From an uncultured Candidatus Saccharibacteria bacterium (GTDB lineage: Bacteria > Patescibacteriota > Minisyncoccia > Phycocordibacterales > CSBR16-119), in NCBI GenBank assembly GCA_964652835.1, contig CAZZCB010000001.1, forward strand, positions 26,935 to 90,934: 64,000 nt of DNA, in the 5' to 3' direction. The notes under the pieces are model-generated. The model was not told where the DNA came from. It ran no database searches and saw only the letters and a program-made list of their open reading frames with translations. Every line of letters begins with the position of its first letter. Position 1 is the stretch's first letter. Positions 6,107-38,996 of this stretch are shown piece by piece. The position numbers and the translations under genes are program-made.

Positions 6107-6156
6107 GCGAAAAGGATTTGGTTACAACCAACGAAATTGCTGGTCGTTTGTTTGGC

Positions 6157-6184
6157 AGTATAGCATATAATAAAAACTTGTCAA
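6157..6184 (-). promoter_or_regulatory. sigma70-type promoter (TTGACA-16-TGcTATACT) for island gene 5600..6106
   Basis: Minus strand reads gcTTGACAagtttttattatatgcTATACT. Same architecture as 5 other promoters in the window. Confidence 0.6.
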
Positions 6185-6288
6185 GCACTTTTATTTATGC
6201 TATAGTTTGTCTACCAAAAACCTTTATTTTAAGCCATTTTTTGGTAATTAATAAAAAATTACTAGACACTAATAACTATAAACCACAT

Positions 6289-6885
6289 ATGTTAATACCA
6301 ACAGTAATAGAAAAGACACATAACGGAGAACGGGCTTACGACATATACTCTCGCCTACTAAAGGAGCGGATTATCTTCCTGGGAACAGGGGTTGAAGAAA
6401 ACTCATCAAGTAACATAATCGCTCAACTTCTTTTTCTAGAATCAGAAGATCCTAAAAAAGATATATATATGTACGTAAACTCTCCAGGCGGAAACGTAAA
6501 AGACGGACTTGCGATAATAGACACAATGAATCATATCAAACCAGATGTGGCGACAGTTTGTGTAGGTATGGCAGCTTCAATGGGTGCAGTAATACTTTCA
6601 GCTGGAGCAAAAGGTAAGAGATTTATACTTCCAAACGCGGAAGTTATGATCCATCAACCACTTGGCGGAGTTGAAGGACAAGCTTCTGATATCGCTATAA
6701 CGGCAGACAGAATAATAAAGACGAAAGCTAAATTAAATAAAATCCTTGCAGAAAACACAGGTCAAAAAGTTGAAAAGGTTGAAAAAGACGGAGACAGAGA
6801 CTACTGGATGGACGCAAAAGAAGCAGTAAAGTACGGAATCGTAGACAAGATAATGGAGAAACCTAAATCTGGAATTAAGAAATAA
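6289..6885 (+). CDS. clpP: ATP-dependent Clp protease proteolytic subunit
   Basis: [10 protein letters not shown]...[14 protein letters not shown]...MIHQPLGG catalytic Ser/His motifs. The ORF-track N-extension from 6091 is non-homologous and overlaps the divergent promoter, so the start is set at the ATG at 6289. Confidence 0.9.
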
Positions 6886-6892
6886 AATAAAA

Positions 6893-6921
6893 AGACCCCG
6901 CACTTCGTGCGGGGTCTTTTT
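6893..6921. terminator. bidirectional terminator between clpP and the convergent 529-aa gene
   Basis: agaccccgcacttcgtgcggggtct hairpin flanked by A-run and T-run. Confidence 0.7.
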
Positions 6922-6924
6922 ATT

Positions 6925-8514
6925 TTATAGTCTACCTAAATCTACTCCGTACAAGTTCATATCGTGTTTGTTTATAAAGATAAAATAATCTTGTTTATCA
7001 TTTACAACCGGACTTGTAACATCTATTTGGCCTTTTATCTTATTTTGATCGAGTAATATTTTTGCAGTATTCGTCGCAACATCTATTTTCCAAATCATAT
7101 CTGAGAATAGAGTCTCCCCTTTATACCAGTCGTCTGGATAAGTGGCTGTTGGAACAGAAGATGGGGCGCCACAATAAATAGTTTTACTATCTTTTGTCCA
7201 TATACATTTTTCAGGAAGAGTTGTTGGGGCGAAATCTGAGATCTGTCCTGTTGCGATGTTTAATAAAGAAGTTTTTAAAGTCGCGTTTTCATATGAACTG
7301 TATAGAGCCTTTTTTCCATCTGGACTTATATTTGTCGTTAGCCCGTTTACGTTTGAGATTATATTTTTCAGACTATTATTTTTAACATCTAAGATATATG
7401 AGTTTCCTGGATATCTGCCAGATGCGCGAGTGGTTAAAGAAATAGTATTTTCAGATATAGCTTGAGGGATCCATTCTGAGAATTTTGATGACCAAACTTT
7501 TTTAGAAGCCCCTGTTTTAAAATCATATATCACGCCGTCCACACCAGAGGATTGTTTTAACAAGTAAAATATTTTTTGTCCTGAAGATATAGGAGAAACA
7601 AAAGTTATATTATTAGTCAGAAGTTTTGTTTCAAGCGTTGCATATTTTGCAGAGTCCCCCAAAAGAAGATCTGGCTTTTTAATACTCGCGACAACATTTT
7701 CAACAATACCGTCTTTAAGATATCTCATGAGCAAGAAGCTTTTTGTATTATCAAAATAAGACTCGTATACTCTAGCAACCTGAGAACTAGTAACTCTAGC
7801 AAGTGGCTCATTTGGTTTTATCGCCTTGTCAAAAATATATCCGTTTGATCTATCTACAAAACGGACAAGCTCTACAGTTTCCTTCAGAGGAGCTTTCGCC
7901 ACCTTTGGCACAATACCCTGGAATTCGTTAAGCTTCTTGTACATCATCGGACCCACAACTCCGTCCGGAGTTAGTCCGCTTTTGTCCTGGAATTCGATAA
8001 CTGCATTTTTTAGAGTTGTGTCAAAAGCGTTGTCTATAGCTAAAGACGGCGAAGGGTCTTGTCTATTCAAAACAGTTTTTAAATCTACAACCTCTTTCCT
8101 GTCGTCTCCAAATTTAAGAGATGGATATCCTGTAAAATCATACCCTTCTACCAAGTTCGCAGAAACTTCTTCTGGAACTATTATCTCTCTTTCGATATAA
8201 GTAAAGGTGGTGCCAGATACAGGCTCTTCACTTATTTTTTGAACTATTGGAGAATCTTCATTTGAAACAAAATCAACCTGAACAGGAACGGCTCCATCCC
8301 CTTCACCTTCTTCAGAACTGCCATCTCCCCCACTAGAATTATTCCCATCGCCCAAAGAAGTATCTTCTGAATTTATTCCAAAAGGATTTTCAATATTCGT
8401 CTGTATTTCCAGCGCATCTTTTTTGTTTTTTGCGCGAACCAAAATAATACCTAAAATAACAAGGCCGATAGCCAGAACTGAAACGAGTAAGATTTTAAAA
8501 AGTTTTTGTGACAT
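6925..8514 (-). CDS. membrane-anchored protein with peptidoglycan-binding domain and TolB-like beta-propeller repeats
   Basis: N-terminal TM. PG_binding_1-like LTPDGVVGPMMYKKL. Repeated SPDGKK / WD-like segments. Last gene of the T4SS-like operon. Confidence 0.55.
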   Translation of the reverse strand: MSQKLFKILLVSVLAIGLVILGIILVRAKNKKDALEIQTNIENPFGINSEDTSLGDGNNSSGGDGSSEEGEGDGAVPVQVDFVSNEDSPIVQKISEEPVSGTTFTYIEREIIVPEEVSANLVEGYDFTGYPSLKFGDDRKEVVDLKTVLNRQDPSPSLAIDNAFDTTLKNAVIEFQDKSGLTPDGVVGPMMYKKLNEFQGIVPKVAKAPLKETVELVRFVDRSNGYIFDKAIKPNEPLARVTSSQVARVYESYFDNTKSFLLMRYLKDGIVENVVASIKKPDLLLGDSAKYATLETKLLTNNITFVSPISSGQKIFYLLKQSSGVDGVIYDFKTGASKKVWSSKFSEWIPQAISENTISLTTRASGRYPGNSYILDVKNNSLKNIISNVNGLTTNISPDGKKALYSSYENATLKTSLLNIATGQISDFAPTTLPEKCIWTKDSKTIYCGAPSSVPTATYPDDWYKGETLFSDMIWKIDVATNTAKILLDQNKIKGQIDVTSPVVNDKQDYFIFINKHDMNLYGVDLGRL

Positions 8515-8516
8515 AT

Positions 8517-10049
8517 TTAGTTAAATGTTATGTGCCAATGTTTAGCGGTAGTGTTTCCTGTTGAGCCACTTGGTTCTGCGTAAAAACTTCCAACTCCATC
8601 AATATTAATCGTCTGACCGCTAGGGAAATTAGCGCTTGGGGATGGCCCTCCTGGTAAACCATTTAAGTATGTATTTAAAGATTCTGTAGCCCTCATGTCT
8701 ATAATCTTTTTATTTGGACCATGTGTGGAGTGAAGCCAGGCCTCACTCCCTCCTGTTATGACCATTTCACAGTTACAACTATTTTTAAAGGATATTATCT
8801 GCCCGATTACAGACTCAGCGGTTGAATCAAAATAAACAGAAGTACAATTTGGCGTACCAGCTGTTGGTGTACAGTTAGAATTACCGGAAGATGAAACAGA
8901 TATACCTGCAGCAGATAACTGACCTCTTTGCTGAGAATCATCTGGCCATGGCATTCCCATAACGATAGGTTGACCATTTAACATTGCAGTAGGTGCGATA
9001 TTTGTACCTGGTGTAGCATTACCGTTGTCCCATTCTCTTGTTGGTCCATCTAATGTGACTGTTGGTATTTTAATATTTAAATCCTCTGCAAGCTCTGGGT
9101 TTATTGTGTTTAATATAACCCAAGCGCCCAATGCTAAAACAAGTCCTGTTATTGCATTTACTATGTAACTTTTTCCCTTTCCTTTTTCTCCAAAAGACTC
9201 AGATGTTAGATATGTTATACCTCCAACAACAATCATTATCAGCGCCAAAAGTCCTGCGACAACTATAAGTATCGTGAACAGAGATTCAAGCCATTGACCC
9301 ACGTCTGGGTCCCCTGTGAATCCTGGAAGTGGTGCCAGAGGGGTGGTTGAATACTCACCTGAAACAACACCACCAGTGTTTATAACACCAGTTGTTGTTA
9401 TGTCTATGGTTGTATTATCCGTGCTACAAATACCACCATACGGTAAAGGGTTTGGCGCCTGACCGGCGCCGACGGGACATCCAAGTTGCCAGTACGTTTG
9501 ACATGAATAGTCACATTCATACATTAGCCCACTACCATTTTGAGATAGGTTAAAAATTTCTGGTGACCCTGTTATGCTGTCGTTAAATATTTTAATTGCA
9601 ATTATACAGTCCTCTATTCCTGCCACCGCCTCACACCCCCCCAAAACTCCTCGTTCTCCAACCAGAAGAGGTATTGAAAAGTCACTTGTTGTAGACTGAA
9701 AATCAGTAGAACCATTTGGTGACGAAGTAGAGTCAGTAAGTGCTATTTTTATTTCTTGTATTGGGACGACCTCGATACCAAATGATAATGTTGTACTAAA
9801 TTGAATATTTTGCAAAAGGACTCTGAATATATTTCCGCCAGTAGTATTACAATCTATAGTTTTTACATCTAGATATACAAATGGCCTAGGATCATCCTCG
9901 TACTGATTTATGGTAAACCAACCTTGGGGTCTGATGGACGTCTGACCAGATACTATCTCACAGGCCTCTACTGAGTGGGCGCCGGAAAAAACAAAAAAAC
10001 CTGTAAGGAAAAGAAAGACAGTTAAAAGATTTTTAATAAAACTATTCAT
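8517..10049 (-). CDS. T4SS-associated surface protein: signal peptide, internal double-TM hairpin, C-terminal putative zinc peptidase (M15/VanY-like) domain
   Basis: TM hairpin LFTILIVVAGLLALIMIVVGGITYL-TSESFGEKGKGKSY-IVNAITGLVLALGAWVIL resembles a VirB2/TrbC pilin-like hairpin. C-terminal HSTHGPNKKIID ... AKHWHITF resembles the H-x(6-7)-D ... HxH zinc ligands of M15 peptidases. Confidence 0.4.
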   Translation of the reverse strand: MNSFIKNLLTVFLFLTGFFVFSGAHSVEACEIVSGQTSIRPQGWFTINQYEDDPRPFVYLDVKTIDCNTTGGNIFRVLLQNIQFSTTLSFGIEVVPIQEIKIALTDSTSSPNGSTDFQSTTSDFSIPLLVGERGVLGGCEAVAGIEDCIIAIKIFNDSITGSPEIFNLSQNGSGLMYECDYSCQTYWQLGCPVGAGQAPNPLPYGGICSTDNTTIDITTTGVINTGGVVSGEYSTTPLAPLPGFTGDPDVGQWLESLFTILIVVAGLLALIMIVVGGITYLTSESFGEKGKGKSYIVNAITGLVLALGAWVILNTINPELAEDLNIKIPTVTLDGPTREWDNGNATPGTNIAPTAMLNGQPIVMGMPWPDDSQQRGQLSAAGISVSSSGNSNCTPTAGTPNCTSVYFDSTAESVIGQIISFKNSCNCEMVITGGSEAWLHSTHGPNKKIIDMRATESLNTYLNGLPGGPSPSANFPSGQTINIDGVGSFYAEPSGSTGNTTAKHWHITFN

Positions 10050-11010
10050 TTTCTGTAATATTTAATCTCAAAGGTCTTGAGTTTTCTTGTAATAACTCTG
10101 TCTTGTTGTTTGTTCTGAAATTTAAATCTACTGAATTAACATTTTGAGCAACATCAAGGAAAATCATATTAGGAAAATCTGTAGCAAAAACCCTGCCCCC
10201 CACCTTCCACTCAGTTAGAAGTGAGGGGTCTTTAAGATTTTTTGTGAAAATAAAATATGGCTCAGCTATTATGTTTATTTTTCTTTTATTGAAATTTTGA
10301 TCTGTTTTTACGGCTTTGTTATATAAAGGTCCGTAGGCAGAGCTAAATTCATAAAAGTGAACTTCACTGCTACCCGGGGTGATAGTAACGCTCTTTTCTA
10401 AAGACCTAGAAAGCCCGGCAGCCGAAACCTGAACTGAGTTTTGTTTATCTAAAATACCAGGAGAATAAAGGAAGCTGTTTTTTCCGTAGCCTGATTGGCC
10501 GGCAAAATTAGATCCGTCTTTATGCCAAGAATATACGAAAGTTTCCGGACTAGGAACAAAACCCTTACTGTTTGTAATCTGAGGAATAGCCACAACCTTT
10601 ATTCTGGACTGTTTTATAGGGATTATCTTACCTTTATAAAAAGGTGGCTCATATCCACCAACAACCTCCCAGAGGACATCCATAGAAGATGGGTTTATTT
10701 TTATAGAAGCTTCGAGACTACCCCCATTTATCTTGGCTATGCTTTTTATAGTATTTCCATTTTCACCAACAGAGAAAGAAAAGTTTTTTATTCCCTTTCC
10801 TTTACTTTCTAGCTTTCCGTCTTTATACCAAGAAATTTCTGAGTTATTTAGATCAAGACCAAAAGAAGAAACAGAAACGGAAACCATCTCACCAGGAGAA
10901 GGATAGCTTGGAGAAGATTTAAGCTCTAGAGACTGAGCGCCTACAAAAAAGGGCAACGCAAAAAAAACAAAGGCTGAGAATATTATTTTTTTTGACAAAA
11001 TGCCTTTCAT
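10042..11010 (-). CDS. secreted protein, unknown function (T4SS-like operon)
   Basis: Signal peptide MKGILSKKIIFSAFVFFALPFFVGAQS. Confidence 0.45.
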   Translation of the reverse strand: MKGILSKKIIFSAFVFFALPFFVGAQSLELKSSPSYPSPGEMVSVSVSSFGLDLNNSEISWYKDGKLESKGKGIKNFSFSVGENGNTIKSIAKINGGSLEASIKINPSSMDVLWEVVGGYEPPFYKGKIIPIKQSRIKVVAIPQITNSKGFVPSPETFVYSWHKDGSNFAGQSGYGKNSFLYSPGILDKQNSVQVSAAGLSRSLEKSVTITPGSSEVHFYEFSSAYGPLYNKAVKTDQNFNKRKINIIAEPYFIFTKNLKDPSLLTEWKVGGRVFATDFPNMIFLDVAQNVNSVDLNFRTNNKTELLQENSRPLRLNITENE

Positions 11011-11016
11011 AATAGT

Positions 11017-11661
11017 TTAAAATTTTAGCTCTTCCTCAACTTCTTTTTCAATATTTGATATCTCCCCTTTTATAGCATCAACTTTATTTAACTGACTTTC
11101 TATTTTTTGTTTTGATTCTTCAAGTTCTTTTATGTTTTCTATATCTTTAGCAATATCTTCTTTTACTTTTTTTAGATTATCTAATTCTTCTTTTACTTCT
11201 GTTTTTTTAAACCCGAGCTTTTCTACTATTTTAGAAAGCATCGACTGAAGACTTAAGATTTTTTCATTTAAGGATTCATTTTTCGCTGGAGCAGAAGAGT
11301 GTCCGACAGTTTGGTTAAACTCTTTTTCTAAATCAGAAATATTTGTTTCAACTTTATTTGGTAAAGGTTTTATTGGGTCAGTAGCCGGAGCGACGCTTTC
11401 CAAGGCCTCCTCTTTTGCCGGAGTAGATTTTTTATCCATCTGCTCTTTTAGTAAACTTAAATCTTCTTTGCTTCCTTGCGGAGCAAATTCTAAGCCTATT
11501 TTTTTAAGATCTGCATCGTCGCCCGACACAGGAGCACTATCTATATCTATAAATTCTTCTGTTTTGCTATCTCCAGATGACAAATCGACACCCGCATTAT
11601 GTAAAGTATCTTTCTCGCCACCAGTTATTTTATTATCTGTTGTTTTATTATCTGTATCCAT
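11017..11661 (-). CDS. acidic coiled-coil protein (T4SS-like operon)
   Basis: ORF track; low-complexity acidic N-terminus and K/E-rich coiled-coil C-terminus. Confidence 0.45.
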   Translation of the reverse strand: MDTDNKTTDNKITGGEKDTLHNAGVDLSSGDSKTEEFIDIDSAPVSGDDADLKKIGLEFAPQGSKEDLSLLKEQMDKKSTPAKEEALESVAPATDPIKPLPNKVETNISDLEKEFNQTVGHSSAPAKNESLNEKILSLQSMLSKIVEKLGFKKTEVKEELDNLKKVKEDIAKDIENIKELEESKQKIESQLNKVDAIKGEISNIEKEVEEELKF

Positions 11662-11713
11662 TGGCTTTATTATACCAAGAAGATACGAAAAAAGTCTTTA
11701 AATGTTGTGAATT

Positions 11714-13789
11714 CTAGATTTGATCCTTAAACATCTTTTCCAGCTCTTCTATTTCGGCGTCAAGTTTATTGTTTTCGTCTTCCATTTTATCAGTTTCGGT
11801 CTTATTTTCTAGAACAATTCTTACTTTAGGCTTATTTTCCATAGCCGGCTGTTCTGCGGTCACGGTTTCATCTGGCTCTAAATCATCACTTTTTGACTCT
11901 AAAGGCAGATCTTCTTCATAGTTAACCTCGTAGGATTCGTCTTTTGCTGGATTTGGCTTTCCCCCACCTTCTTCTTCCATATATTCATCTTTTGCTTTTT
12001 TAATAGCTAAAATCTGCGACGGATCAGATGTGATAATCTGGTCTTCTGTATATGAAGCGATTATTTTAATAGCCACGTGTTTAAGCCCGGCAAAGAAAAT
12101 TCCCTCTCCGACTTCTGATTCTAGAAGCAAATATTTTTCCTCATCTGTCAGGTTGAAAACTTTTTGCAATGCATCAGCAGAACTTGTGGATTGTTTCAAA
12201 AGAATCTGCATCGACGAGTTCGTCACGATAGGCATACCATACGGTGAGTTTATAAAATCATTTACGTCTTGAGTTATTGTTGAAAGGCCAAGATAGTATT
12301 TTCTACCTCTTTTTGCGATTGAATAAAGGAAACTCGCCGTATCTTCAGATTTCATCATCCACCAAGCCTCATCGACAATAAGAAGTCTCTTCTTTAGATT
12401 TTTACGGACAGCGTTCCAGATAAAGTGTGTGATGATATACATCGCAACAGGTTTTAGGTCGTCCTCCATGTCTCTAACAGAAAAAACTATAAATTTTCTA
12501 TTTATATCTACGTTTGTTGGTTGGTTTAGGAAATTCTTCCAAGTACCCTGAGTATATTTTATAAGTCTAGTTACCACAGATTCGCTTCCCTCAAGTCCCG
12601 AAAGAACCATTTCAAAGTCAGACAAAAGCGGCGGTTCGATATTTGAGAAATCAGATTCTGCTGAAATATCTTTCATTGCATAAGTTTCTGTTATGGCTTT
12701 GTCTATTAGTGCATCTTCTTCCGGCGAAAGTCCGCCGAGCATGATTCTAAAAAGTCCTACGAGCTGGATGGTGTTTCCCCTCAAAATATCGTCTGGCGTT
12801 TCGTCACCTGTTGGCATTGGTAAATCAAAAGGGTTTATGTGGTGCTCTGAAGAAAGAGAAATATTAAAATATCGCCCGCCGATAGCTTCTGCAAGATACT
12901 CATATTCTCTTTCCGGGTCGATAACAATAACTTCTGCATCAAACATTAGTGTTCGCAAAATCTCAAGTTTTGTAGAATAAGATTTACCAGAACCAGACTT
13001 GGCGAAAGTTACAGAGTTGTAGTTCTCAAGAGAAAATCTATCGAAAATAATAAGTGACGAGTTGTGTCTATTTACCCCATACAAAATACCCTTGTCTGAA
13101 GAAAGGTCGAAAGAGACAAACGGAAAAAGACTAGAAAGTGGTTCTGAGTTTAGCTTTTGGTGAATCGCCAAAAAATCGTTCCCTGTTGGGATAACACTGT
13201 TGAAACCTACGTCTTGTTGGAAAAGGGCTGGTTTTATATACACAAGCTTTGATTCAAGCATTGATTTTATTTCACTTTCTATCTTTGAAAGTTCTTTTTC
13301 GCTGTCAGCGTATATAGTTATATAAAGTCCAACGTCAAACATTTTCTGTTGAGCTTGTTGTAGGCTATCGCGAAGGTTTTCAAGATCCTGATACGCAGTA
13401 TCTAAAACAGGGTCGCGCACAAGACCTTTTGATTCACGCACATTTATCTGACTTTGAACTTCAGCAACTTTCTTCTGGAACTTTTTTAAAATATCTTCTG
13501 TGTTTATGTTGTGAATGTGAATAGCAACATCGAATATTTTGTCTAGGTTGATTATCGGCGTAAACCAGTTATCTGAAAGATAACGGGGATACGAGATAAC
13601 GAAATAAGTTCTGGTTATTTTATCTCCCAGGTTTAGGTTTTTTGGAGAAACCTTTAGGGCTGACGGAGCCAAAATATCCTGAAGCTCAAGAGTTGCGGCT
13701 TCGTAAATCTCCTTCGGTAAAACCGGCATTATCTCACGCTTTTTTGATCCAGATTTATTTGATTTTAAAATATTATCTAAAAAACCCAT
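11714..13789 (-). CDS. VirB4/TraC/TrbE-family type IV secretion ATPase (central and C-terminal ATPase part)
   Basis: Walker A SGSGKSYST. VirB4 DEAW motif (LLIVDEAWWMM). CagE_TrbE_VirB region VISYPRYLSDNWFTPII. Confidence 0.85.
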   Translation of the reverse strand: MGFLDNILKSNKSGSKKREIMPVLPKEIYEAATLELQDILAPSALKVSPKNLNLGDKITRTYFVISYPRYLSDNWFTPIINLDKIFDVAIHIHNINTEDILKKFQKKVAEVQSQINVRESKGLVRDPVLDTAYQDLENLRDSLQQAQQKMFDVGLYITIYADSEKELSKIESEIKSMLESKLVYIKPALFQQDVGFNSVIPTGNDFLAIHQKLNSEPLSSLFPFVSFDLSSDKGILYGVNRHNSSLIIFDRFSLENYNSVTFAKSGSGKSYSTKLEILRTLMFDAEVIVIDPEREYEYLAEAIGGRYFNISLSSEHHINPFDLPMPTGDETPDDILRGNTIQLVGLFRIMLGGLSPEEDALIDKAITETYAMKDISAESDFSNIEPPLLSDFEMVLSGLEGSESVVTRLIKYTQGTWKNFLNQPTNVDINRKFIVFSVRDMEDDLKPVAMYIITHFIWNAVRKNLKKRLLIVDEAWWMMKSEDTASFLYSIAKRGRKYYLGLSTITQDVNDFINSPYGMPIVTNSSMQILLKQSTSSADALQKVFNLTDEEKYLLLESEVGEGIFFAGLKHVAIKIIASYTEDQIITSDPSQILAIKKAKDEYMEEEGGGKPNPAKDESYEVNYEEDLPLESKSDDLEPDETVTAEQPAMENKPKVRIVLENKTETDKMEDENNKLDAEIEELEKMFKDQI

Positions 13790-13790
13790 A

Positions 13791-14426
13791 TTATTCTTTG
13801 TTAAAGTTTATCTTAGATTCGGCATCGCCAGGGTTAAACACTTTATAGAAAAGCTCGACTTCTTCATCTGTCTTTAGCGCAACTGTTCGTACTCCAACGC
13901 GCGAAAGACCTTGCTGAACAAGGGCTACCCTCTGCTCGAGCTGTGACCGGTAAAGCTCAAACTCCTCTTTTTTGTTTTGATTACTTTTACTGCTTGGTAA
14001 AATCTTTTCCAAAAAACCACCAGAAGAAGCTAGCACTGCGGGAGTATAGGGCACAACAACAAAAAAGTGCTTTGTCATAATATTAACATCATCTGTAAAA
14101 TTTTGGATGAACTGCATATACTCTTGTGTTTGAATCTTGAGTAGTGGCTCTGTTTGATTTTTTAATTTCTCTTCAAGAGTTGCGAGATATGAAGTAACAT
14201 CATATTTTCTAGATTGAATAGAGATCTGAACTGAAAAATCCAATGTGTTTAAAAAGTTTTGGAACTGCATAATAATAGCGTTTTGTTCGTCTTCTGATTT
14301 AAGAGAGATGTTCACCGAAGAAGCCATTAAAATAGACCGGAGTCCACCATCTTTTAAAACAACAATCCCATCCTGGATTTCTTTTATTGGTACAAATTCT
14401 TGTGAAGCGCGAGCATTTAAAGCCAT
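13791..14426 (-). CDS. VirB4 N-terminal domain protein (split VirB4, translationally coupled to 11714..13789)
   Basis: VPIKEIQDGIVVLKDGGLRSILMASSVNISLKSEDEQNAII matches the N-terminus of Gram-positive VirB4-like ATPases (PrgJ/TcpF/ConE type). Stop TAA is 1 nt before the next ATG (TAAtATG). Confidence 0.6.
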   Translation of the reverse strand: MALNARASQEFVPIKEIQDGIVVLKDGGLRSILMASSVNISLKSEDEQNAIIMQFQNFLNTLDFSVQISIQSRKYDVTSYLATLEEKLKNQTEPLLKIQTQEYMQFIQNFTDDVNIMTKHFFVVVPYTPAVLASSGGFLEKILPSSKSNQNKKEEFELYRSQLEQRVALVQQGLSRVGVRTVALKTDEEVELFYKVFNPGDAESKINFNKE

Positions 14427-14429
14427 AAA

Positions 14430-14909
14430 TTATTTTCTTTTATTCATATCTAAAACGTCTAAGCTCCATGAAATATCTTTTAATTTACCTTCTGTAAGAC
14501 GAGGAAGGGCCTCACCAGAGGTAGATTTTTCGATACGACTAGGTAAAACTTTTTCTTTTTTAGGAGCTCTTTGTTTCCAAATAAAAAGCTTACTTCTAAA
14601 AAAGTAATTCATAGAAGATTGCAGAACTTCAGAAAAATCTCTACCATTTACTTTGTAAAAAGTAAGGGCAAGAGCCAGCCCGACAACAACTAGAATCAAA
14701 GGTATGGCTATTAAAAGCGGTAAGACTTTTGATAAAACATAAGCTCCCCCGGCACCACCTAAAAGATATATGAACTGCTTAAAGGTAAAAGGACCGAAAA
14801 TCTTATCCTCTATTTCAATAAATTGTGGAACTTGAAATCGCATATACATAGTATACAGTATTCGGTATTTAGTATACAGTTTTAAACCAAAAATATTGTG
14901 GATGAACAA
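14430..14909 (-). CDS. PrgI-family (VirB3-like) small membrane protein
   Basis: RFQVPQFIEIEDKIFGPFTFKQFIYLLGGAGGAYVL plus a second TM. Typical PrgI layout directly upstream of VirB4. True start probably the internal Met about 20 codons in. Confidence 0.55.
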   Translation of the reverse strand: MFIHNIFGLKLYTKYRILYTMYMRFQVPQFIEIEDKIFGPFTFKQFIYLLGGAGGAYVLSKVLPLLIAIPLILVVVGLALALTFYKVNGRDFSEVLQSSMNYFFRSKLFIWKQRAPKKEKVLPSRIEKSTSGEALPRLTEGKLKDISWSLDVLDMNKRK

Positions 14910-14935
14910 AACCCCTTGCGGGGTTTTGTTTTATT
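14905..14935 (-). terminator. terminator between upstream operon and T4SS core operon
   Basis: aaaaccccttgcggggtttt hairpin with T-run. Confidence 0.6.
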
Positions 14936-15530
14936 CTATTGGTTCACGATATGGATCAAATTTTATTTCAGGTATTTTTATTACCCCTTCTTTTGCCATC
15001 ATCGCTGGAACACTCACGGGAACTTCTTTTGTTGAAGGCTCTGGCTCTGGGGTTTTTTCTACAACAGGCTCTGGGGCTTTAATTCTTTTATCTACAAAAG
15101 TTTCGATTGTTTTCTTTTCTGATTTTGGAGTATAACCATCTTCAACCTCAATCCCAGAGTAGTGAAGCTCGTCTTTTTCTTCGTCTGCCATTATTTCCCC
15201 AGCAGAAACTTTTTCATAGTGAAGTCGCAAAGCTTCTCTGATTTTTGAAAAAAGTCTCTCGTTTACCTGGTCAACAATATTCATAAGTTCATCGTCTGAA
15301 AGACCAATTCTTTTTTGAATATTTTCTGGATAGTCTTTTGGATGCTCGAGCCCTATCATGGTCAAAATAGTTTCAACAGAGAGAGTGTCGATGTCGTCTA
15401 TGTGCATTTTATGCTCGCGACCAATGTTAAAAATCGTTCGCTCCCAGTCCGACGCACGAATAGCTTCCCGCACCTCGGCTGGGATTTTCTTCATCTGCTC
15501 TTCTATTAACTTTTTTTGATTTTCATCCAT
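14931..15530 (-). CDS. hypothetical acidic protein
   Basis: ORF track only. Confidence 0.4.
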   Translation of the reverse strand: MDENQKKLIEEQMKKIPAEVREAIRASDWERTIFNIGREHKMHIDDIDTLSVETILTMIGLEHPKDYPENIQKRIGLSDDELMNIVDQVNERLFSKIREALRLHYEKVSAGEIMADEEKDELHYSGIEVEDGYTPKSEKKTIETFVDKRIKAPEPVVEKTPEPEPSTKEVPVSVPAMMAKEGVIKIPEIKFDPYREPIE

Positions 15531-15541
15531 ATATTTTTATT

Positions 15542-17707
15542 TTATATTGCACCTCCCCCTGGTGGCGGAGTGGCTGATGGCGGAGTGGCTGGCTTAGGTT
15601 TTTCATCCTCTTTTGCTAATTTTTTAGCAAGCTCTGAGAATTTTTCTGCATCACTCTTAGATGCTTTACCACTTCTTATATCGTTGGCTATTTCTTTATT
15701 ATCAACTCCCATCATCATGCCCCAGACATCTCTAGACGCCACAGCATCAGCAACAAGACCGCGTCTTTCTTTCTCTTCATCTTTAATAAAGTCTTCGTCT
15801 TTTTTCCTTCTAACCTCCTCTCCTTTTTTATCAATTTCTTTTAATTTTTTCTCTCTTTCTTCTGGAATTTCTTTGTTTAACCTTTTTTCAAGCTTATCTC
15901 TTTCTTCTGACTCGTCTTTATTTAACACACCCTTTTTTATAAGCTCGTCTAATCTTTCAGTAACCTCCTTTGTCTCTTCATCAAAACCACGCTTTATTTC
16001 GTTCTTCGTATCAAGTAGGGCAAACAATTCATCCTGCCTACGTTTACCAACAACCTTGTCTCTTTCTCTAAACGAAACAGATGATTGATCTTCTGCCATC
16101 TCAAGCTTTTCTTTTCGTTTGTCTTTTTCAAACTTGTCTCGACTTTCCGTGGATCCTTTTCCGAATGTCATTTTATCACCAGCAAAAGCTGTTGATGCCG
16201 GTTTTATAATGTTTTTACCCGCAAAACCAGCAACACCACCAACCGCACCACCTAGCATTTTTGACTTGTCGGCATTTCTGATATCAAAGCTACTTTTTTT
16301 CCAATTATTAAGACGATTTTTTGTACTCTGTAAGCTATATAATTCTTTTTGCAAAAGTCGTTTTTGTACAGGGTCGTCTGTATTTTTAAGAGCAGTTCTG
16401 GCTTCGGCAATACGAGCATTATAATTACCAGCCTTTAGAGCAGATGAAGCAAGTCCACCAACAACTTTCCTTCCCGCAAAAGCAGTCGCACCCAACGCAC
16501 CACCAGCCGCAACACCTGCGACCTTACCCACAATACTCTTAACCATACTGCCAAATTCCCCAGCCATACTGTCGGCTGTTTTCTTAGCTATTTGAAGCAA
16601 AACTATTATAAAAATAAACGGGATGAAAATCTTCATTAAGTTTGTAAAAATATCAGCACCCTCAGCTGGAACCGCTGGGCCTGTTCCAAAAATAGAAAGG
16701 AATGAAATCATTAAATAAAGGAAGAAGATAAAAATAGGGGCCATAAAAGCAAGCTTTAGAACTGTGTCTTTCCAAGTATCGAAACTCATTTGTTTTACGA
16801 GTCCTCCGCTTCCAGGTACGGCTAGTGTTATAAAAGCTATCGGAGAAAAAATCATCGAGAACCAAAGACCGATAACTCGCCCGACAAAAAGTAACGCCAC
16901 AGACACAAATGTCCACATAAGGAAACCGTTGACGATGACCATCAAAATAAATACCGCAAAAATAGTACCAGTCTTTTCAATTACGGGTGTAACTGTTCCT
17001 GTAAACTGACCTGTCTGAGTACTGTATTGACCAGAGGCGCTACTAGATCCAGACAAAAATATTGATGAACTGAGTAAATTTTGTGGATTTATTTTATCAA
17101 CAATACCAAAAGTTATTGATTTATAACCTTCTGCGTCTGCATAGGATTGATCATTTTCAATAACAATACTGTTGTAAAAAGCTCGGGCTAGAATATTACC
17201 TGCATCTATGACAACTTTTGTAAAAAAAAGTGAGAAGTTTAAAAGAAGAGCGACTATGATCAAAGTTGGAATATATTTTTTAGAACTTGAACCTAAAATA
17301 TGTCGTATTGCCAAATAAAGCAACGTAAAAATAAACGCCACGTTTGAGATATCTCGTATTAGCCCCCAACCTTTTATAATGAAATCTGAACGATAAGCAT
17401 TTGAATCTAGACTGTATCCCAAGAAAAAGTCTAAGATCTTTGCAGCAACTCCAACCAGCCAAAAAGATGGTTCTAAGATCACATTATAAAAAGCATAAAG
17501 TAAACAATTGGCAGAAAAAGGGTTAGACCAATTCGAGCAACCTTTTTCTACTGCGCTTTCTATATTTGTGTCTAGAACTAAGGAACCCTGATCTGTTGGC
17601 GCCCCTTGAGCAAAGGCCAAAGGCGCTGGAGACACAAAGTATCCAGAGAAAACTACAAATATTGAAGCTGCTAAAATTGCTATTTTTTTCATTATAGGCA
17701 AGACCAA
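15542..17707 (-). CDS. VirB6/TrbL-like polytopic membrane protein with long K/E-rich C-terminal tail
   Basis: Signal/TM followed by at least 6 hydrophobic helices. C-terminal 250 aa are charged low-complexity ending in PPSATPPPGGGAI. Confidence 0.5.
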   Translation of the reverse strand: MVLPIMKKIAILAASIFVVFSGYFVSPAPLAFAQGAPTDQGSLVLDTNIESAVEKGCSNWSNPFSANCLLYAFYNVILEPSFWLVGVAAKILDFFLGYSLDSNAYRSDFIIKGWGLIRDISNVAFIFTLLYLAIRHILGSSSKKYIPTLIIVALLLNFSLFFTKVVIDAGNILARAFYNSIVIENDQSYADAEGYKSITFGIVDKINPQNLLSSSIFLSGSSSASGQYSTQTGQFTGTVTPVIEKTGTIFAVFILMVIVNGFLMWTFVSVALLFVGRVIGLWFSMIFSPIAFITLAVPGSGGLVKQMSFDTWKDTVLKLAFMAPIFIFFLYLMISFLSIFGTGPAVPAEGADIFTNLMKIFIPFIFIIVLLQIAKKTADSMAGEFGSMVKSIVGKVAGVAAGGALGATAFAGRKVVGGLASSALKAGNYNARIAEARTALKNTDDPVQKRLLQKELYSLQSTKNRLNNWKKSSFDIRNADKSKMLGGAVGGVAGFAGKNIIKPASTAFAGDKMTFGKGSTESRDKFEKDKRKEKLEMAEDQSSVSFRERDKVVGKRRQDELFALLDTKNEIKRGFDEETKEVTERLDELIKKGVLNKDESEERDKLEKRLNKEIPEEREKKLKEIDKKGEEVRRKKDEDFIKDEEKERRGLVADAVASRDVWGMMMGVDNKEIANDIRSGKASKSDAEKFSELAKKLAKEDEKPKPATPPSATPPPGGGAI

Positions 17708-17768
17708 TTCACTATAATGAAATTATAACACTCTTCTTAAAAAGCGAAGATTTTTATTGTGTAAATCT

Positions 17769-20135
17769 TTAGTATAGAGACTGTAGATTATTTGCGAATA
17801 TCTCAGTTGTAACGGTTGGCACTGTAAATGTGAAATCATTGAATCCTGAAATATTGATTTCAGTGTTATCGTCCCCAAAGTTTATGTTATTTAAGAATCT
17901 ATCGGCGTTTACAGGTAGGTTGTTTCCAATAATGGTGTTTTCATATATGGATTGGAATGGATACTGAATTCTTTCATTTAATGCTGTATACCCCGTCGAA
18001 ACCTCACTTAAACAATCATTTATGTATCCATTGACTGCAAATATTTGAGAGGCGTAGTTTGAAACATTTGAGGTTACTTGATCTAACTGACCTTGACTAA
18101 CTATGGCGTTTTGATTATAGATATTATCTAAAAGAGACTCTATGACCTGCATTTCAGGACTATTTGGATCTCCTTGTTGTTCTGGGGTAAGAGATTCATA
18201 TTGAGAGAAAATGGCTTGTATTTGAGGTATAACAGGTATTAGGTTGTTAACTTGATTTTGTAGTATACCTATTTGAGTTTGGTAGCCTTCTATTTGTGAA
18301 AAATAGTTCGAGGCAACAGGTCTTATTGTTGGTGGAGCCTGGAGAGAAGAGTAATTTGCAAGAACCTCATTTCTATATTTAGTAAAAACAAAATTCATAA
18401 ACAAGCTAAACTGAGTGTAGTCAGGAACAATATATTCAGGAATAATAATTCCTGTAAGATCCTCAACAACGGCAGCGTAATAAACCCCGTCTCCACTCGG
18501 CGCAACTTCATTAATCATAGATTGTAAATTAATAGACGCAAATTCGTTCCATCTTGGATTTGGCCCAGGCACGCAATAATCTAGCGCTCTTATGTCTCTT
18601 ATTAAAGTTGAGATATTTTGTATAGCAGAGTTAGCTTGTATCAGATAAGATTGTTGTATTTCAAGTAAACCAGAATCTAGACCTTCTCCGTTTAAAACCT
18701 CGGAGACTGGTGGCTGGTTCGCGTTGGCTCCAAAATCTGGGTCGTTTGATTGCGCCCATAAAGCATTATAATTAGGGTCGTTTGGATTTGAGCTATATTG
18801 ACCGTCCGGTCTTTGAAAGGCCCTCAACCCTTGCTCAAACAACTGAGCCGCTAGTGTATCTAGTATTAGACCTAGGTTTTCATTAAATTCATCAGCAAGT
18901 TCAAGCCCCCTTAGAGGTGAACCCAGAGCCTGGCTAGTTTGTTCGGCAATAAATCTACCCGGGGTTACCGTCTCCCATTTTGCACAATTACTTCTGTTGA
19001 CGAAATAGTTATACATTTCTCTTTGAGCGTAGTCTCCCTCTACGTCCGAAAGTTCTGCTTGAACAGCCTCAGGAAGAAGCTCGATAACATCAGAAACGGT
19101 TCCGTTTGGACCCATTAAAGAGTAGCCCCCCATATGCATAGGGTCATTTCTGTCGAAATACACATCAGCAGGATCTCCTGTGTTTGTAAGCCTGCAAACT
19201 CTCTGGTTTAAAAGTCCACCAGCTTCATTTAACTCCTGCTGGAAATTTTCAACAATATTAATATCACTACCCGCTATTTGTCGAGAGAGATGGTTGTTTG
19301 CCATTATGTAGTTACCGAAAATATTATTGTTTGGTTGAGCAAAGGCTGTATATCCAGCCCACCCTCCAACACTAAATCTGGCTTGGAAGTTTTCATATGA
19401 GGCATATTGATTATTACTTTGAAGAACCTGGTTTAAAGAAAACCGCATATTGTCTTGAAGCCTGTTTTGAACAGTAAGCAATATTGTTTCAGATAGTATT
19501 CTTCCAAAAGGGTAGTCTTCTGGATTCATTGAAAACCAACCAGTAAAACTTACTATCTCGTCTTTTGCAATTTCTTCAAAAAAATTAGCCCTATCTTCTG
19601 GATAAAATGGATTTCCTTCAAACCCGCTGTTAATCCATTCAACGGTCATGAAGGTTATCTTATCAATAATCTTTAGAACAATAAACCGCGCGATAAGATC
19701 TAGACATTCCTCTTTAAAACTTTGTAGTGTTGTTTCAGTGTTAACTTTTCCCACCTCTGCCTGAACAGACGCCTTTACCGTCTCATCCACCACAGGAACT
19801 TTAGGTCCTGGGGTCACCCCCGAAGCTGCATCTGTTATATCTGTCCCAATAACAGCCTCACTTAATTCACCAACCCCGTCAACGACGGCGGCCTCACCTT
19901 TCTCAGACAATGCGGCAGCGGCTTTCGCCGCTTTTCTTTCTGCAAAAAATTTAGTACTGCAAGTCAAGGCAACCCCCGCAATACCTTGGATATTTAATCC
20001 CCCACTAGCATTTCCCCCACCACCAAAAAGCTGTGCTTCTGCCTTTGGTGTATGTGCGGAAAAAATTGAAACTAATAAAATAGTTACAACAAGGAAAGAG
20101 GATATTGTTTTTTTAAAAAAAGAAAAACTTTTCAT
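17769..20135 (-). CDS. large secreted Q/N/S-rich surface protein (788 aa)
   Basis: Signal peptide. No nucleotide-binding motifs. Adhesin-like composition. Confidence 0.5.
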   Translation of the reverse strand: MKSFSFFKKTISSFLVVTILLVSIFSAHTPKAEAQLFGGGGNASGGLNIQGIAGVALTCSTKFFAERKAAKAAAALSEKGEAAVVDGVGELSEAVIGTDITDAASGVTPGPKVPVVDETVKASVQAEVGKVNTETTLQSFKEECLDLIARFIVLKIIDKITFMTVEWINSGFEGNPFYPEDRANFFEEIAKDEIVSFTGWFSMNPEDYPFGRILSETILLTVQNRLQDNMRFSLNQVLQSNNQYASYENFQARFSVGGWAGYTAFAQPNNNIFGNYIMANNHLSRQIAGSDINIVENFQQELNEAGGLLNQRVCRLTNTGDPADVYFDRNDPMHMGGYSLMGPNGTVSDVIELLPEAVQAELSDVEGDYAQREMYNYFVNRSNCAKWETVTPGRFIAEQTSQALGSPLRGLELADEFNENLGLILDTLAAQLFEQGLRAFQRPDGQYSSNPNDPNYNALWAQSNDPDFGANANQPPVSEVLNGEGLDSGLLEIQQSYLIQANSAIQNISTLIRDIRALDYCVPGPNPRWNEFASINLQSMINEVAPSGDGVYYAAVVEDLTGIIIPEYIVPDYTQFSLFMNFVFTKYRNEVLANYSSLQAPPTIRPVASNYFSQIEGYQTQIGILQNQVNNLIPVIPQIQAIFSQYESLTPEQQGDPNSPEMQVIESLLDNIYNQNAIVSQGQLDQVTSNVSNYASQIFAVNGYINDCLSEVSTGYTALNERIQYPFQSIYENTIIGNNLPVNADRFLNNINFGDDNTEINISGFNDFTFTVPTVTTEIFANNLQSLY

Positions 20136-20142
20136 ACTCTTA

Positions 20143-21033
20143 TTATATTACACCATTTGTAGAAAAATACTTTTTAAATGCATTAATATCGTTAAGCAAC
20201 TTTTCTGAATACTCGTCATACTTACTAAAATAAGTTGCGACTTTTAACGGATCCTCTTCTAGAAAGAAGACGCTTTTCATTATTTCAGACATTTTATCTA
20301 GGTTGTTTATATATGACAAATGTAAACCAACGTTTGAGTTTGGAACTTTAGTACCTAATAAACCTTTAATTAGTCCTTCCGAAAAACTTAAATATTTTCC
20401 TAGCTCATCTAGTCCATACTTATCTTCTGGGTTTTCCAAAATATACGCAAGTAATGTTAATTCACTTGTTTCTAATTTACCAAGCCTTGCATAAATATCT
20501 GAAACATCTTTTTTATATTGATCAACGGAAGTATTACCTATCTTAAGGTCAGACATTGTATATTTGTCTTTCAAGCTAAAATTTTCAATCGACTGACCTA
20601 TTCCTTGAGAAAATTGATCTACCGTATCTTGGTTAAATGAACCATTTTGATTTAAAACAGAGGCGGTCGTAAAAAACTGCTTAGCAAAAACTTCTGTTTC
20701 GTTGTTGGGGTTAGATTTATATGTCTCATCAAAATCCACCTCTTTTCTTTTGTTTTCAACATATTTTTTATCATCTAGACCATCACCGTCTGTGTCTTTC
20801 AGACTTGGGTTTGTTCCCCATAAAGCCTCTTCCCAGTCATATAGTCCATCTTCGTCTGTATCTAAAGAAAAGAAATCTTCACTTTCGGCTACCGATGCAA
20901 ATGCTTCGCTCGAAGAATTTTGCCAGACTGTTTTTTTATTTAAAATTTTACCAAAAATAAAAATAAGTAACGCCAACAAAACAGCAGTACCGATTATTTT
21001 TACAAATTGTTTGCTTGGTAAGTATTTTTGCAT
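20143..21033 (-). CDS. membrane-anchored protein with thrombospondin type-3-like Ca-binding repeats
   Basis: DTDEDGLYDWEEALWGTNPSLKDTDGDGLDD (DxDxDG motifs). N-terminal TM. Confidence 0.5.
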   Translation of the reverse strand: MQKYLPSKQFVKIIGTAVLLALLIFIFGKILNKKTVWQNSSSEAFASVAESEDFFSLDTDEDGLYDWEEALWGTNPSLKDTDGDGLDDKKYVENKRKEVDFDETYKSNPNNETEVFAKQFFTTASVLNQNGSFNQDTVDQFSQGIGQSIENFSLKDKYTMSDLKIGNTSVDQYKKDVSDIYARLGKLETSELTLLAYILENPEDKYGLDELGKYLSFSEGLIKGLLGTKVPNSNVGLHLSYINNLDKMSEIMKSVFFLEEDPLKVATYFSKYDEYSEKLLNDINAFKKYFSTNGVI

Positions 21034-21040
21034 AGTTTAT

Positions 21041-21445
21041 TTATATTGGTAGCGGTAGAGATGTTCCCCACATAACAGCCCTAAGAACTGGGATAGGGCT
21101 AACTATCGGAGGTACGACAACTGTACAGTCGGGTAATGGTACAGGAAGATAAAGTCCCAAAATCCAAGAGCCTGGGGCAATTAGCCCGAACTGAGTAAGT
21201 GGTGATAAGGTTTGTTGAAACGGACCCACTATTGGAGGAGTCAATATTGTTGGTGTAGTGATAAAAGGATCTTCAGGAGCAAAATCAACGTCTGGGCAAA
21301 CTGCGCCCGGAACCGGCGCCGTCACAACCTGTCCACCAAAAGGCATGAGTGCTTGCGCAAGCGTGATATTTACAGACAACCCAAAAAGAATTATAAAAAC
21401 AAAAAATATGATTTTTTTCATATTTCTATTATATACCAAAACCAA
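21041..21445 (-). CDS. small Pro-rich secreted protein
   Basis: Signal peptide MKKIIFFVFIILFGLSVNITLAQA. Confidence 0.4.
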   Translation of the reverse strand: MVLVYNRNMKKIIFFVFIILFGLSVNITLAQALMPFGGQVVTAPVPGAVCPDVDFAPEDPFITTPTILTPPIVGPFQQTLSPLTQFGLIAPGSWILGLYLPVPLPDCTVVVPPIVSPIPVLRAVMWGTSLPLPI

Positions 21446-21462: not shown

Positions 21463-22236
21463 CTAAATAGATTTTAAAAGCAAAAGCCAGTCCGAAAGAC
21501 TCAGTTTTTCAGCTCTTATGTTTTGATCAAGGCCTAGCTCTTTAAATTTCTCTTCTAAAAGCTCTCTTTTGACACCTAGACCGCTAAGATTTTTTATTAA
21601 AGTCTTTCTTTTTTGAGAAAATCCTCCTTTTATGAGTCTGAAAAATTCATCTTTTTCTTTATCTTTTAGGGTATTTTTAATATTTTCTATCAAAAGTATG
21701 GCCGAGTCTACTTTTGGCTCTGGAGAAAAATACCGAGCTGGGATTTTACTCACGAATTTTGGCTCGCCAAAAACCCGAACGCTCATCGACAAAATACTTT
21801 CTTTGCCGTCACGTGCCACCACTCTTTCCGCCACTTCTTTTTGAACAATCAGCGCCATAACGGCCGGCTGATACTTTGACTCTAAGAATTTTTCTAAAAT
21901 AGCACCTGTTATATAGAAAGGAATATTTGCAACTATTTTATATTTTTTAGGAAGCTTTGAAAGATCGAAAGTTAAAATATCATCTTTTAAAAGAATAAGT
22001 TTTTTACTTTTTATTTCTTCTTTAAATTTCTCTTCAAGCACCGGGATAAGCTCTTCATCTTTTTCAATAGCAATAACCTTCCCTGCGGACTCTAAAACTT
22101 TTTCTGTTAGAGCTCCTTTTCCTGGGCCGATTTCAACCACGGTATCTTCCCCACTAATTTTTGCAGCCAAAATAATATCTCGTAGAGCTTTTCCAGATTT
22201 TAAGAAATTTTGTCCAAGGTGTTTTTTAGCTTTCAT
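21463..22236 (-). CDS. rsmA: 16S rRNA (adenine1518/1519-N6)-dimethyltransferase
   Basis: HLGQNFLKSGKAL...VVEIGPGKGALT KsgA signature. Confidence 0.9.
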   Translation of the reverse strand: MKAKKHLGQNFLKSGKALRDIILAAKISGEDTVVEIGPGKGALTEKVLESAGKVIAIEKDEELIPVLEEKFKEEIKSKKLILLKDDILTFDLSKLPKKYKIVANIPFYITGAILEKFLESKYQPAVMALIVQKEVAERVVARDGKESILSMSVRVFGEPKFVSKIPARYFSPEPKVDSAILLIENIKNTLKDKEKDEFFRLIKGGFSQKRKTLIKNLSGLGVKRELLEEKFKELGLDQNIRAEKLSLSDWLLLLKSI

Positions 22237-24189: not shown

Positions 24190-24227
24190 AAAGCCCCCGA
24201 TTGGGGACTTTCTGTGTATTATTTTAC

Positions 24228-38758: not shown

Positions 38759-38805
38759 ATTTTGTGTGTCCTGCTTTCACAGGTTTATTAACTTATAACC
38801 ACTAT

Positions 38806-38834
38806 ATTATAGCACTTTACAATATATTTGTCAA
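38806..38834 (-). promoter_or_regulatory. near-perfect sigma70 promoter (TTGACA-17-TGcTATAAT) for 37286..38758
   Basis: Minus strand reads gcTTGACAaatatattgtaaagtgcTATAAT. Confidence 0.65.
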
Positions 38835-38962: not shown

Positions 38963-38996
38963 TACTTTCCCCGTTTTGGGGCTAGTTCCCTTCGTG

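Follow-up and report, generated by a model that had tools for sequence, protein, structure and literature searches.

A probable non-conjugative type IV secretion locus with a tripartite, module-exchanging pilin gene in a patescibacterial chromosome

We analyzed a 64-kb stretch of contig CAZZCB010000001.1 (assembly GCA_964652835.1; the whole stretch is referred to hereafter as the window), in which 13 co-directional open reading frames (ORFs) fill positions 6925–21445 of the minus strand with intergenic gaps of 61 nt or less. This cluster is probably a chromosomal type IV secretion system (T4SS) of a non-conjugative kind, derived from the conjugation machinery of monoderm bacteria (MPF_FATA type) with the link to DNA transfer having been lost. 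It belongs to a kind of T4SS already published for the ultrasmall Patescibacteria, found here in a genome of the Paceibacteria, and adds no new system. Its one unusual feature, set within an otherwise known core, is a fused and shuffled pilin gene, encoding a 510-residue protein in which a VirB2-like hairpin is joined to an ectodomain on one side and an enzyme-like domain on the other. The first-pass annotation, made from the letters of the window, had read the locus as a Gram-positive-type, non-conjugative T4SS of a reduced genome, probable host-interaction machine included; that core reading has held up, and every ORF that it listed was recovered at the same position on the minus strand.

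Core secretion genes of a chromosomal locus

To place the components, Pfam models were run over the main ORFs of the window, and NCBIfam models over the ORFs of the cluster together with those lacking a Pfam match; VirB4 relatives were sought in one genome per species, and all locus comparisons use the best 80 of 577 confirmed relatives. The ATPase gene (11714–13789, minus strand) encodes 691 amino acids (aa) corresponding to the C-terminal two thirds of a canonical VirB4. The protein scores 379 bits against NF045971 (the CD1110 family, of Firmicutes/MPF_FATA type; cutoff 325) over profile positions 183–733, matches the solved VirB4 domain of PDB entry 4ag5 (E = 3e-40), and retains both an intact Walker A motif (GSGKS, aa 266, 12980–12994) and an intact Walker B motif (DEAW, aa 473, 12362–12373). 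The profile search agrees with the original VirB4 call.

Immediately upstream, a gene that the first-pass annotation overlooked (13791–14426, minus strand) encodes a TrsD-like protein of 211 aa, equivalent to the VirB4 N-terminal domain as a gene of its own. It matches NF045975 at positions 103–232 (E = 2e-11), CD1110 at positions 2–136 (E = 5.6e-7) and TrsD (NF041427) at E = 1.1e-5. With the ATPase confined to profile positions 183–733 and the N-terminal positions matched by the TrsD-like gene, we conclude that VirB4 is split over two genes; the TrsD-like gene is separate in 75 loci, where its products measure 209–234 aa and share a median identity of 58%. The next gene (14430–14909, minus strand, likewise found in 75 loci) encodes a membrane protein of the PrgI/VirB3 family, as first proposed, scoring 35.7 bits against PF12666 (cutoff 27); its orthologues measure ~130–150 aa, and translation probably begins at M21 (14849), for a protein of ~139 aa. 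At its other end, VirB4 finishes in an acidic tail of ~80 aa, most VirB4 orthologues being ~610 aa long. This tail (11714–11960) and an adjoining gene for a 214-aa protein (11017–11661) are found in the two closest relatives only.

Upstream of prgI lies the gene for a polytopic membrane protein of 721 aa (15542–17707, minus strand; the true start is probably M6 at 17692). Hydropathy indicates about six transmembrane (TM) helices up to around aa 400, followed by a charged helical tail of ~320 aa. When an AlphaFold2 (AF2) model of this protein (mean predicted local distance difference test score, pLDDT, of 74) was compared with 350,542 PDB chains using Foldseek, ranks 1–3 were taken by TrwI/VirB6 of R388 and the fourth by DotA; the TrwI/VirB6 matches are weak (probability 0.82–0.91, E = 0.12–0.19, TM-score 0.35–0.37). 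Searches of Pfam, NCBIfam and PDB profiles returned no family for the protein, and no T4SS family came up when all members of its alignment, and of the alignment for the 788-aa protein described below, were scanned with Pfam. When the 721-aa family was aligned to PrgH with hhalign, no relationship emerged, although a template of one sequence gives such a test little power. A PF19590 label, carried as a precomputed tag by two distant homologues, was not reproduced at E ≤ 0.01 and was discarded. The gene occupies the same position as that for the VirB6-like SEML1_0013 of Candidatus Southlakia epibionticum and that for PrgH. Given some six TM helices, the long charged tail, the location upstream of prgI and the fold ranks, "VirB6-like" is a reasonable but not proven description; of the earlier VirB6/TrbL assignment, the fold resemblance stands (all three leading hits), at E values of 0.12–0.19, and a match to a hidden Markov model (HMM) is missing.

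The closest published parallel is the T4SS of Candidatus Southlakia epibionticum ML1 (SEML1_0006–0019), which is likewise chromosomal, monoderm and devoid of a relaxase or type IV coupling protein (T4CP) within the cluster. In that saccharibacterium, too, a VirB6-like gene lies upstream of the run of PrgI, TrsD-like/hypothetical and VirB4 genes (the parallel order runs from SEML1_0013 to 0008), pilins belong to PF18895 and wall enzymes are encoded downstream of virB4; the two clusters also share a neighborhood of ksgA, dnaA and dnaN. The published description of the S. epibionticum system (Wang 2023, PMC10633639) gives the order VirB6-like, NTF2-like, 998-aa T4SS protein, PrgI, hypothetical protein and VirB4, characterizes the apparatus as Gram-positive-like, with pilins and without coupling protein or relaxase, and reports from transposon sequencing (Tn-seq) that the cluster is essential for epibiotic growth. 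The two systems differ in that S. epibionticum has six separate small pilins (132–185 aa) with peptidase and lysozyme genes of their own, whereas the window has one fused pilin gene; in that its NTF2-like (VirB8-like) gene has no recognized counterpart here; and in that the 322-, 529-, 788-, 296- and 199-aa accessory genes of our cluster are specific to Paceibacteria. A survey of 2,474 patescibacterial virB4 genes defined a Patescibacteria clade related to MPF_FATA and catalogued TrsD, PrgI/VirB3, VirB6 and VirB2-like pilins in the vicinity of virB4 (Quinonero-Coronel 2025, PMC12102498). A review of 2025 tells the same story, with a conduit to the host as its proposal.

Conjugative relatives show the same core in another setting. 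In the Prg/Pcf system of pCF10 (Enterococcus faecalis), the order PrgH (VirB6), PrgI (VirB3), PrgJ (CD1110 VirB4) and PrgK (a wall hydrolase) parallels that of the cluster, and the NCBIfam VirB4 family and the Pfam PrgI family are shared; pCF10, however, has a coupling protein (PcfC), a relaxase (PcfG), PrgB adhesins and a plasmid backbone, has no pilin, and makes its VirB4 as a single protein of 796 aa where ours is split. The Trs systems of pGO1/pSK41 and the integrated conjugative element (ICE) of mycoplasmas (Mbov_0395 and the VirB4 Mbov_0397) resemble our TrsD-like protein and pilin hairpin but, unlike the cluster, belong to conjugative elements found in Firmicutes and Mollicutes. As the scores against NF041427, NF045975 and the Mbov_0395 family all lie below the curated cutoffs, we take these matches as remote homology rather than membership. 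A preprint on the Pam pilus proved to concern an unrelated chaperone–usher-like system and was set aside.

The surroundings of the cluster are those of a core chromosomal locus. It is flanked by tig and clpP on one side and by ksgA (21463–22236) and uvrD/pcrA on the other (Pfam/NCBIfam), with further housekeeping genes for PNPase, RuvABC, TyrS, a class A penicillin-binding protein (PBP), DnaN, DnaA, RnpA and YidC elsewhere in the window. VirB4 is encoded ~47 kb from dnaA (60570–61922), which agrees with the location near the origin published for these systems; ksgA, dnaA and dnaN are frequent neighbors of the T4SS in Paceibacteria (PMC12102498). The GC content of the cluster (0.35–0.40) resembles that of the remaining window, with no compositional break; the direct repeats found are of low complexity only, none of them att-like and flanking. 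The Pfam and NCBIfam scans of the main ORFs of the 64 kb contain no relaxase, VirD4 coupling protein, integrase or transposase, so that the first-pass statement to this effect is confirmed for the first three of these.

The best 80 VirB4 relatives are 74–81% identical and come mostly from metagenome-assembled genomes (MAGs) of Patescibacteria, Paceibacteria and Nomurabacteria, with a few titled "bacterium." In most of these loci the order ksgA, 296, 788, 721, 199, PrgI, TrsD, VirB4, 322, pilin, 529 is conserved (numbers denoting protein lengths in the window), and in two that also hold clpP, VirB4 is 79–80% identical as against 72.5% for ClpP. Many of the nearest genomes (loci L001, L005–L007 and others) are titled "uncultured Candidatus Saccharibacteria" in third-party annotation (TPA) assemblies; as these relatives group with Paceibacteria/Nomurabacteria MAGs, the labels are probably wrong. 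On comparative grounds (an order conserved in ~80 Paceibacteria species, housekeeping flanks and no mobility genes), we regard the cluster as a core locus passed on vertically, not as a mobile element. An ICE was rejected in view of synteny, composition and the absence of att repeats.

The same evidence bears on the possibility that the locus is a working conjugation or mobilization apparatus, served in trans by a relaxase, T4CP and origin of transfer (oriT) located elsewhere, which we judge very unlikely. All recognized components are homologous to conjugative MPF_FATA parts, and VirD4-like T4CPs occur in 2,918 Patescibacteria genomes, mostly at a distance from virB4 (PMC12102498); 64 kb of the genome were inspected here. 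Relaxases, however, are present in only 103 Patescibacteria genomes and rarely near virB4 (PMC12102498); the distant T4CP of S. epibionticum is non-essential although its T4SS is essential; and the fixed chromosomal site in ~80 species, free of integrase and att-like repeats, goes together with a VirB4 that is conserved like a core gene. That the cluster might instead be what is left of an integrated conjugative element in decay, without present function, is scarcely credible. Such a remnant would account for the lack of conjugation-specific genes and for the many components without a recognizable family, but all ORFs and the Walker A and B motifs are intact, the homologous S. epibionticum system is essential, and VirB4 identity and gene order have been kept across the 80 species.

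A tripartite pilin gene with exchangeable modules

The gene that sets this locus apart (8517–10049, minus strand) encodes a tripartite pilin of 510 aa, comprising a signal peptide, an N-terminal immunoglobulin (Ig)-like β-sandwich ectodomain (aa 30–235, 9345–9962), a VirB2-like two-helix hairpin (aa 236–333, 9051–9344) with invariant PLAPLPG and ILNTINPxLA motifs, and a C-terminal enzyme-like domain of 176 aa (8520–9047). The hairpin matches PF18895 (T4SS_pilin) at aa 251–316 with 37 bits (cutoff 26.6), bearing out the pilin-like TM hairpin of the first-pass annotation; its similarity to the Mbov_0395 pilin-like family (E = 9e-6) lies below the curated cutoff. A signal peptide followed by a family-matching two-helix hairpin is the organization of the VirB2/TrbC/T4SS_pilin group, and it is the 206-aa N-terminal and 176-aa C-terminal domains outside the hairpin that take the protein beyond the size of a small mature pilin (~70–130 aa). 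AF2 models the ectodomain as all-β (pLDDT ~80) with matches to Ig and carbohydrate-binding module (CBM)-like folds. Foldseek comparison of the whole model with the PDB returned only Ig-like and arrestin matches, all from this N-terminal domain, and a PDB profile search with the 510-aa family yielded nothing usable. With VirB2 topology, the ectodomain and the C-terminal domain would both lie outside the membrane, one on either side of the hairpin. The pilin of one relative (L077:13882–15303) contains two tandem hairpins in a single polypeptide (aa 36–132 and 167–263).

The C-terminal domain is modeled with high confidence by AF2 (pLDDT ~90) and has 484 cluster representatives at E ≤ 1e-3. Among the 82 alignment members scanned (81 relatives and the query domain), 74 have a T4SS_pilin domain, and over the C-terminal domain itself none of the 82 is matched by a Pfam model. 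Residues T403, E436, H440, H443, D451, H504 and H506 are invariant in these 82 sequences, alongside conserved cysteines, in a pattern that recalls the SxH...D/HxH zinc sites of LAS peptidases. The domain had initially been taken for a putative M15 zinc peptidase. A match to M15 was sought in the 510-aa protein (Pfam and NCBIfam) and in the 82 alignment members (Pfam), without result, and hhalign comparison with the M15_4 modules of orthologous pilins gave a probability of 0.45%, the SxH...D motif alone being aligned; M15 membership is not supported by sequence at the level of the family, and what is left of the claim is a weakly matching fold together with the invariant His/Asp motif. The domain occupies the slot held by wall enzymes in relatives, and we describe it as a putative zinc hydrolase belonging to a new, unannotated family that is almost always joined to a T4SS pilin.

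Comparison with relatives demonstrates that both outer domains behave as swappable cassettes. Database homologues keep the N-terminal part and hairpin and end in NlpC/P60, YkuD, Peptidase_M15_4 or GH18 domains, and one of them is 90% identical over aa 1–333 and unrelated afterwards. At least 100 aa follow the hairpin in 57 of the 67 syntenic orthologues; in these 57, Pfam recognizes NlpC/P60 (11), VanY (7), YkuD (5), SLT-type (4), M15_4 (3), Amidase_5 (3) and Amidase_2 (1) modules, and clustering resolves 18 unlinked C-terminal families. At the N-terminus, 24 unlinked families were resolved among 37 orthologues, and one of these families pairs with five different C-terminal families.

The boundaries of these exchanges can be read in the DNA, where cassettes are replaced exactly between relatives with ~92% identical flanking sequence. 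Relative to the window, GCA_030916785.1 is 92.8% identical over 11022–9058, unalignable over 9057–8518, and 91.3% identical from 8517 on; in a JGI contig, identity is 98.7% as far as the signal peptide, no alignment is obtained over 9985–9382, and identity is 89.9% thereafter. The comparison thus covers the N-terminal cassette, replaced in locus L087 (flanks 90–99% identical), and the C-terminal cassette, whose place is taken by NlpC/P60 in L085. The nearest VirB4 neighbor has the same C-terminal family in 8 of 57 cases (chance value 0.10); as far as these comparisons reach, the C-terminal module family is unrelated to VirB4 phylogeny. Our literature search found no description of a pilin–binding–enzyme fusion or of such cassette exchange.

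Two better-known designs invite comparison. Polymorphic toxins and modular phage endolysins combine a conserved segment for delivery or anchoring with interchangeable C-terminal enzyme modules and interchangeable binding modules, with sharp recombination boundaries; here the conserved segment is a T4SS pilin hairpin, and neither a downstream immunity gene nor orphan cassettes accompany it. The bacteria-killing X-T4SS of Xanthomonadales turns a T4SS against neighboring bacteria with payloads that include peptidoglycan hydrolases, and is a diderm MPF_T system with VirD4-dependent effectors and immunity proteins. In our cluster, by contrast, enzyme and pilin are one covalent chain, and an immunity gene is not evident.

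What the fused enzyme acts upon is the point at which readings of this gene diverge. It could do no more than remodel the producer's own wall for T4SS insertion, in the manner of VirB1/PrgK, the diversity of modules then reflecting neutral turnover. Monoderm T4SSs do need a hydrolase of their own, and PrgK follows VirB4 directly in pCF10; this genome makes peptidoglycan (class A PBP, 55987–58602), and VirB1-type matches are associated with virB4 in Paceibacteria (PMC12102498). Strains with ~92% identical flanks should, however, share a wall, yet they carry unrelated enzyme classes; the 18 module families are scattered randomly relative to VirB4 phylogeny; and shuffling of the N-terminal binding module is independent, a behavior also seen in proteins for host recognition. 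We consider self-directed remodeling a doubtful, though serious, alternative. Since relatives with near-identical flanks carry unrelated enzyme and binding modules, we favor, tentatively, the envelope of the host (the partner cell) over the bacterium's own wall as the target.

The modules also bear on whether the locus serves DNA uptake or nucleotide scavenging in company with competence genes, like the ComB T4SS of Helicobacter. The window does encode ComM (30683–32200) and a PilB-type ATPase (41094–42812), and the T4SS genes of class ABY1 are neighbors of comF, recG and radA (PMC12102498). ComM, though, lies 9 kb off, beyond unrelated genes, and wall-enzyme and binding modules on a pilin are unnecessary for taking up DNA. 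In S. epibionticum, moreover, PMC12857230 (citing Wang 2023) describes competence as dependent on type IV pili (T4P) and ComEC, deletion of comEC ending transformation with viability kept, whereas the T4SS is essential. This alternative, which the first-pass annotation had offered beside host interaction, is thus disfavored by published Saccharibacteria genetics, and we rate it as unlikely.

Accessory genes and surroundings of the cluster

Alongside the core, six co-conserved envelope or accessory genes have no recognized family. The best conserved of the accessory genes encodes a secreted protein of 322 aa (10042–11010, minus strand), always just downstream of virB4 and present in 79 of the 80 loci; no Pfam domain was found in 26 homologues and no PDB profile matched, and hhalign detected no similarity between this family and PrgL, again with a single-sequence template that makes the test a weak one. 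At the end of the cluster, a membrane-anchored protein of 529 aa (6925–8514, minus strand, syntenic in 71 loci) bears a PG_binding_1 insert at aa 139–195 (PF01471, 38.6 bits, cutoff 23), as previously noted, which is present in only 6 of 34 orthologues. Its description as TolB-like fares less well: the family profile finds TolB (7mx5) as sole PDB match (E = 0.0085), PD40 is seen in 3 of 34 orthologues and, by Pfam, not in the window protein itself, and family-level support is missing. Tol-Pal genes are not present, and the organism is monoderm; a PD40/TolB-like β-propeller is possible.

Toward the ksgA end, a secreted or anchored protein of 788 aa (17769–20135, minus strand, syntenic in 45 loci) is rich in Gln and Asn (15.7%), as first stated, and gave no Pfam, NCBIfam or PDB-profile match; its orthologues range from 324 to 1184 aa, some with F5/8-type-C or Ig-like inserts. 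The neighboring membrane-anchored protein of 296 aa (20143–21033, minus strand, 34 syntenic loci) carries two TSP3-type DxDxDG motifs, at aa 58 and 80 (22 residues apart). TSP3_bac scores 19.2 bits (E = 0.0011), below the cutoff of 25, and a CglD region matches at E = 1.2e-5; because the pair of motifs is kept in 26 of 32 orthologues, we accept the calcium-binding TSP3-type label given earlier, on the motifs and not on the HMM score. The outermost gene (21041–21445, minus strand) encodes a small Pro-rich protein of 134 aa with a signal peptide (an N-terminal hydrophobic segment); it has no Pfam match and was found by tblastn in 2 of the 80 related loci, and appears to be lineage-specific, its membership of the T4SS being uncertain.

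Two acidic proteins complete the set. One, of 199 aa (14931–15530, minus strand, syntenic in 48 loci), is predicted to be cytoplasmic, with no TM segment and 22.6% Asp plus Glu, and has no Pfam or NCBIfam match; the other is the 214-aa protein encoded beside virB4 on the minus strand, a lineage-specific, coiled-coil protein with weak coiled-coil-type matches only, restricted to 2 of the 80 loci.

A terminator scan found strong terminators only at 6884–6926 and 24187–24214. The first is bidirectional with a perfect 20-bp stem, and closes both the cluster and the convergent clpP. A GC-rich, terminator-like hairpin (14904–14931) between the 199-aa gene and prgI is possibly an internal attenuator or terminator, and an extended −10-like element, TGTTATAAT, precedes the 721-aa gene. 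Two operons, the division made in the first-pass annotation, are one possible arrangement. The clpP ORF itself (6091–6885, plus strand) runs to 264 aa; as the Pfam match spans aa 78–257 only and the gene is called at 198 aa in a relative with 91% identical DNA, the true start is probably downstream of 6091.

Further features of the window are recorded here in their own right. Two genes upstream of the cluster (beyond uvrD and ksgA) lies an acidic ORF of 1700 aa (24228–29330, minus strand; 18% Asp plus Glu), which has no Pfam or NCBIfam match and no tblastn match in the 80 related loci, and is followed by the minus-strand terminator at 24187–24214. An M23 peptidase with two LysM domains (29456–30622, plus strand) and the minus-strand ComM gene stand 8–10 kb upstream of the T4SS genes. 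The plus-strand PilB-type T2SSE ATPase adjoins two minus-strand ORFs, one of 638 aa without a match (38997–40913) and one with a DUF11 repeat (37286–38758); together, the ORFs of 37286–42812 may be components of a type IV pilus or of the cell surface. Between ruvB and yebC, a gene on the plus strand (44226–44585) encodes a four-helix protein of the 23S-rRNA-intervening-sequence/bAvd-like kind. In the replication-origin neighborhood (59217–63616), the minus strand carries dnaN and dnaA and the plus strand carries rnpA and yidC, with jag just past the end of the window.

A working model and its meaning for the organism

From knowledge of the T4SS family we infer the following roles for the core parts. 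VirB4 would act as a hexamer that PrgI/VirB3 docks to the membrane and that powers assembly and translocation, the TrsD-like protein and VirB4 forming together a membrane-associated ATPase, and the VirB6-like polytopic protein would provide the membrane platform or channel. The exported 322-, 529-, 788- and 296-aa proteins would make up the wall-spanning portion that touches the partner cell. Wall breaching and contact, which PrgK/VirB1 provide in conjugative systems, would fall to the pilin protein. As to what is transported, effectors of protein nature, or host-derived molecules passing through a conduit, would be likelier than DNA.

Several observations weigh against a non-conjugative secretion system of this design. 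The VirB6 identity comes from a weak fold match (E = 0.12) without sequence support, and a VirB8-like part was not identified in the cluster; coupling proteins in these bacteria are often encoded far from virB4, and 64 kb of the genome were inspected; and two domains of ~20 kDa may make the pilin too bulky to polymerize like VirB2. Set beside the conserved core, its fixed chromosomal site and the published parallels, these points leave a T4SS freed from DNA transfer as the probable identity of the locus. More speculatively, the tripartite pilin may form a host-specific, wall-piercing tip or sheath, with which the T4SS would cut the host wall to establish a conduit for feeding or effectors, the module carried by each strain tracking the wall chemistry of its host.

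Before the patescibacterial T4SS, none had been shown to be essential for the bacterium that carries it. The fused, shuffled pilin links a T4SS pilin physically to wall-cutting enzymes and binding domains. The module type offers a sequence marker that could be correlated with host identity in metagenomes; if the host-directed model is true, module family would track the peptidoglycan type of the host.

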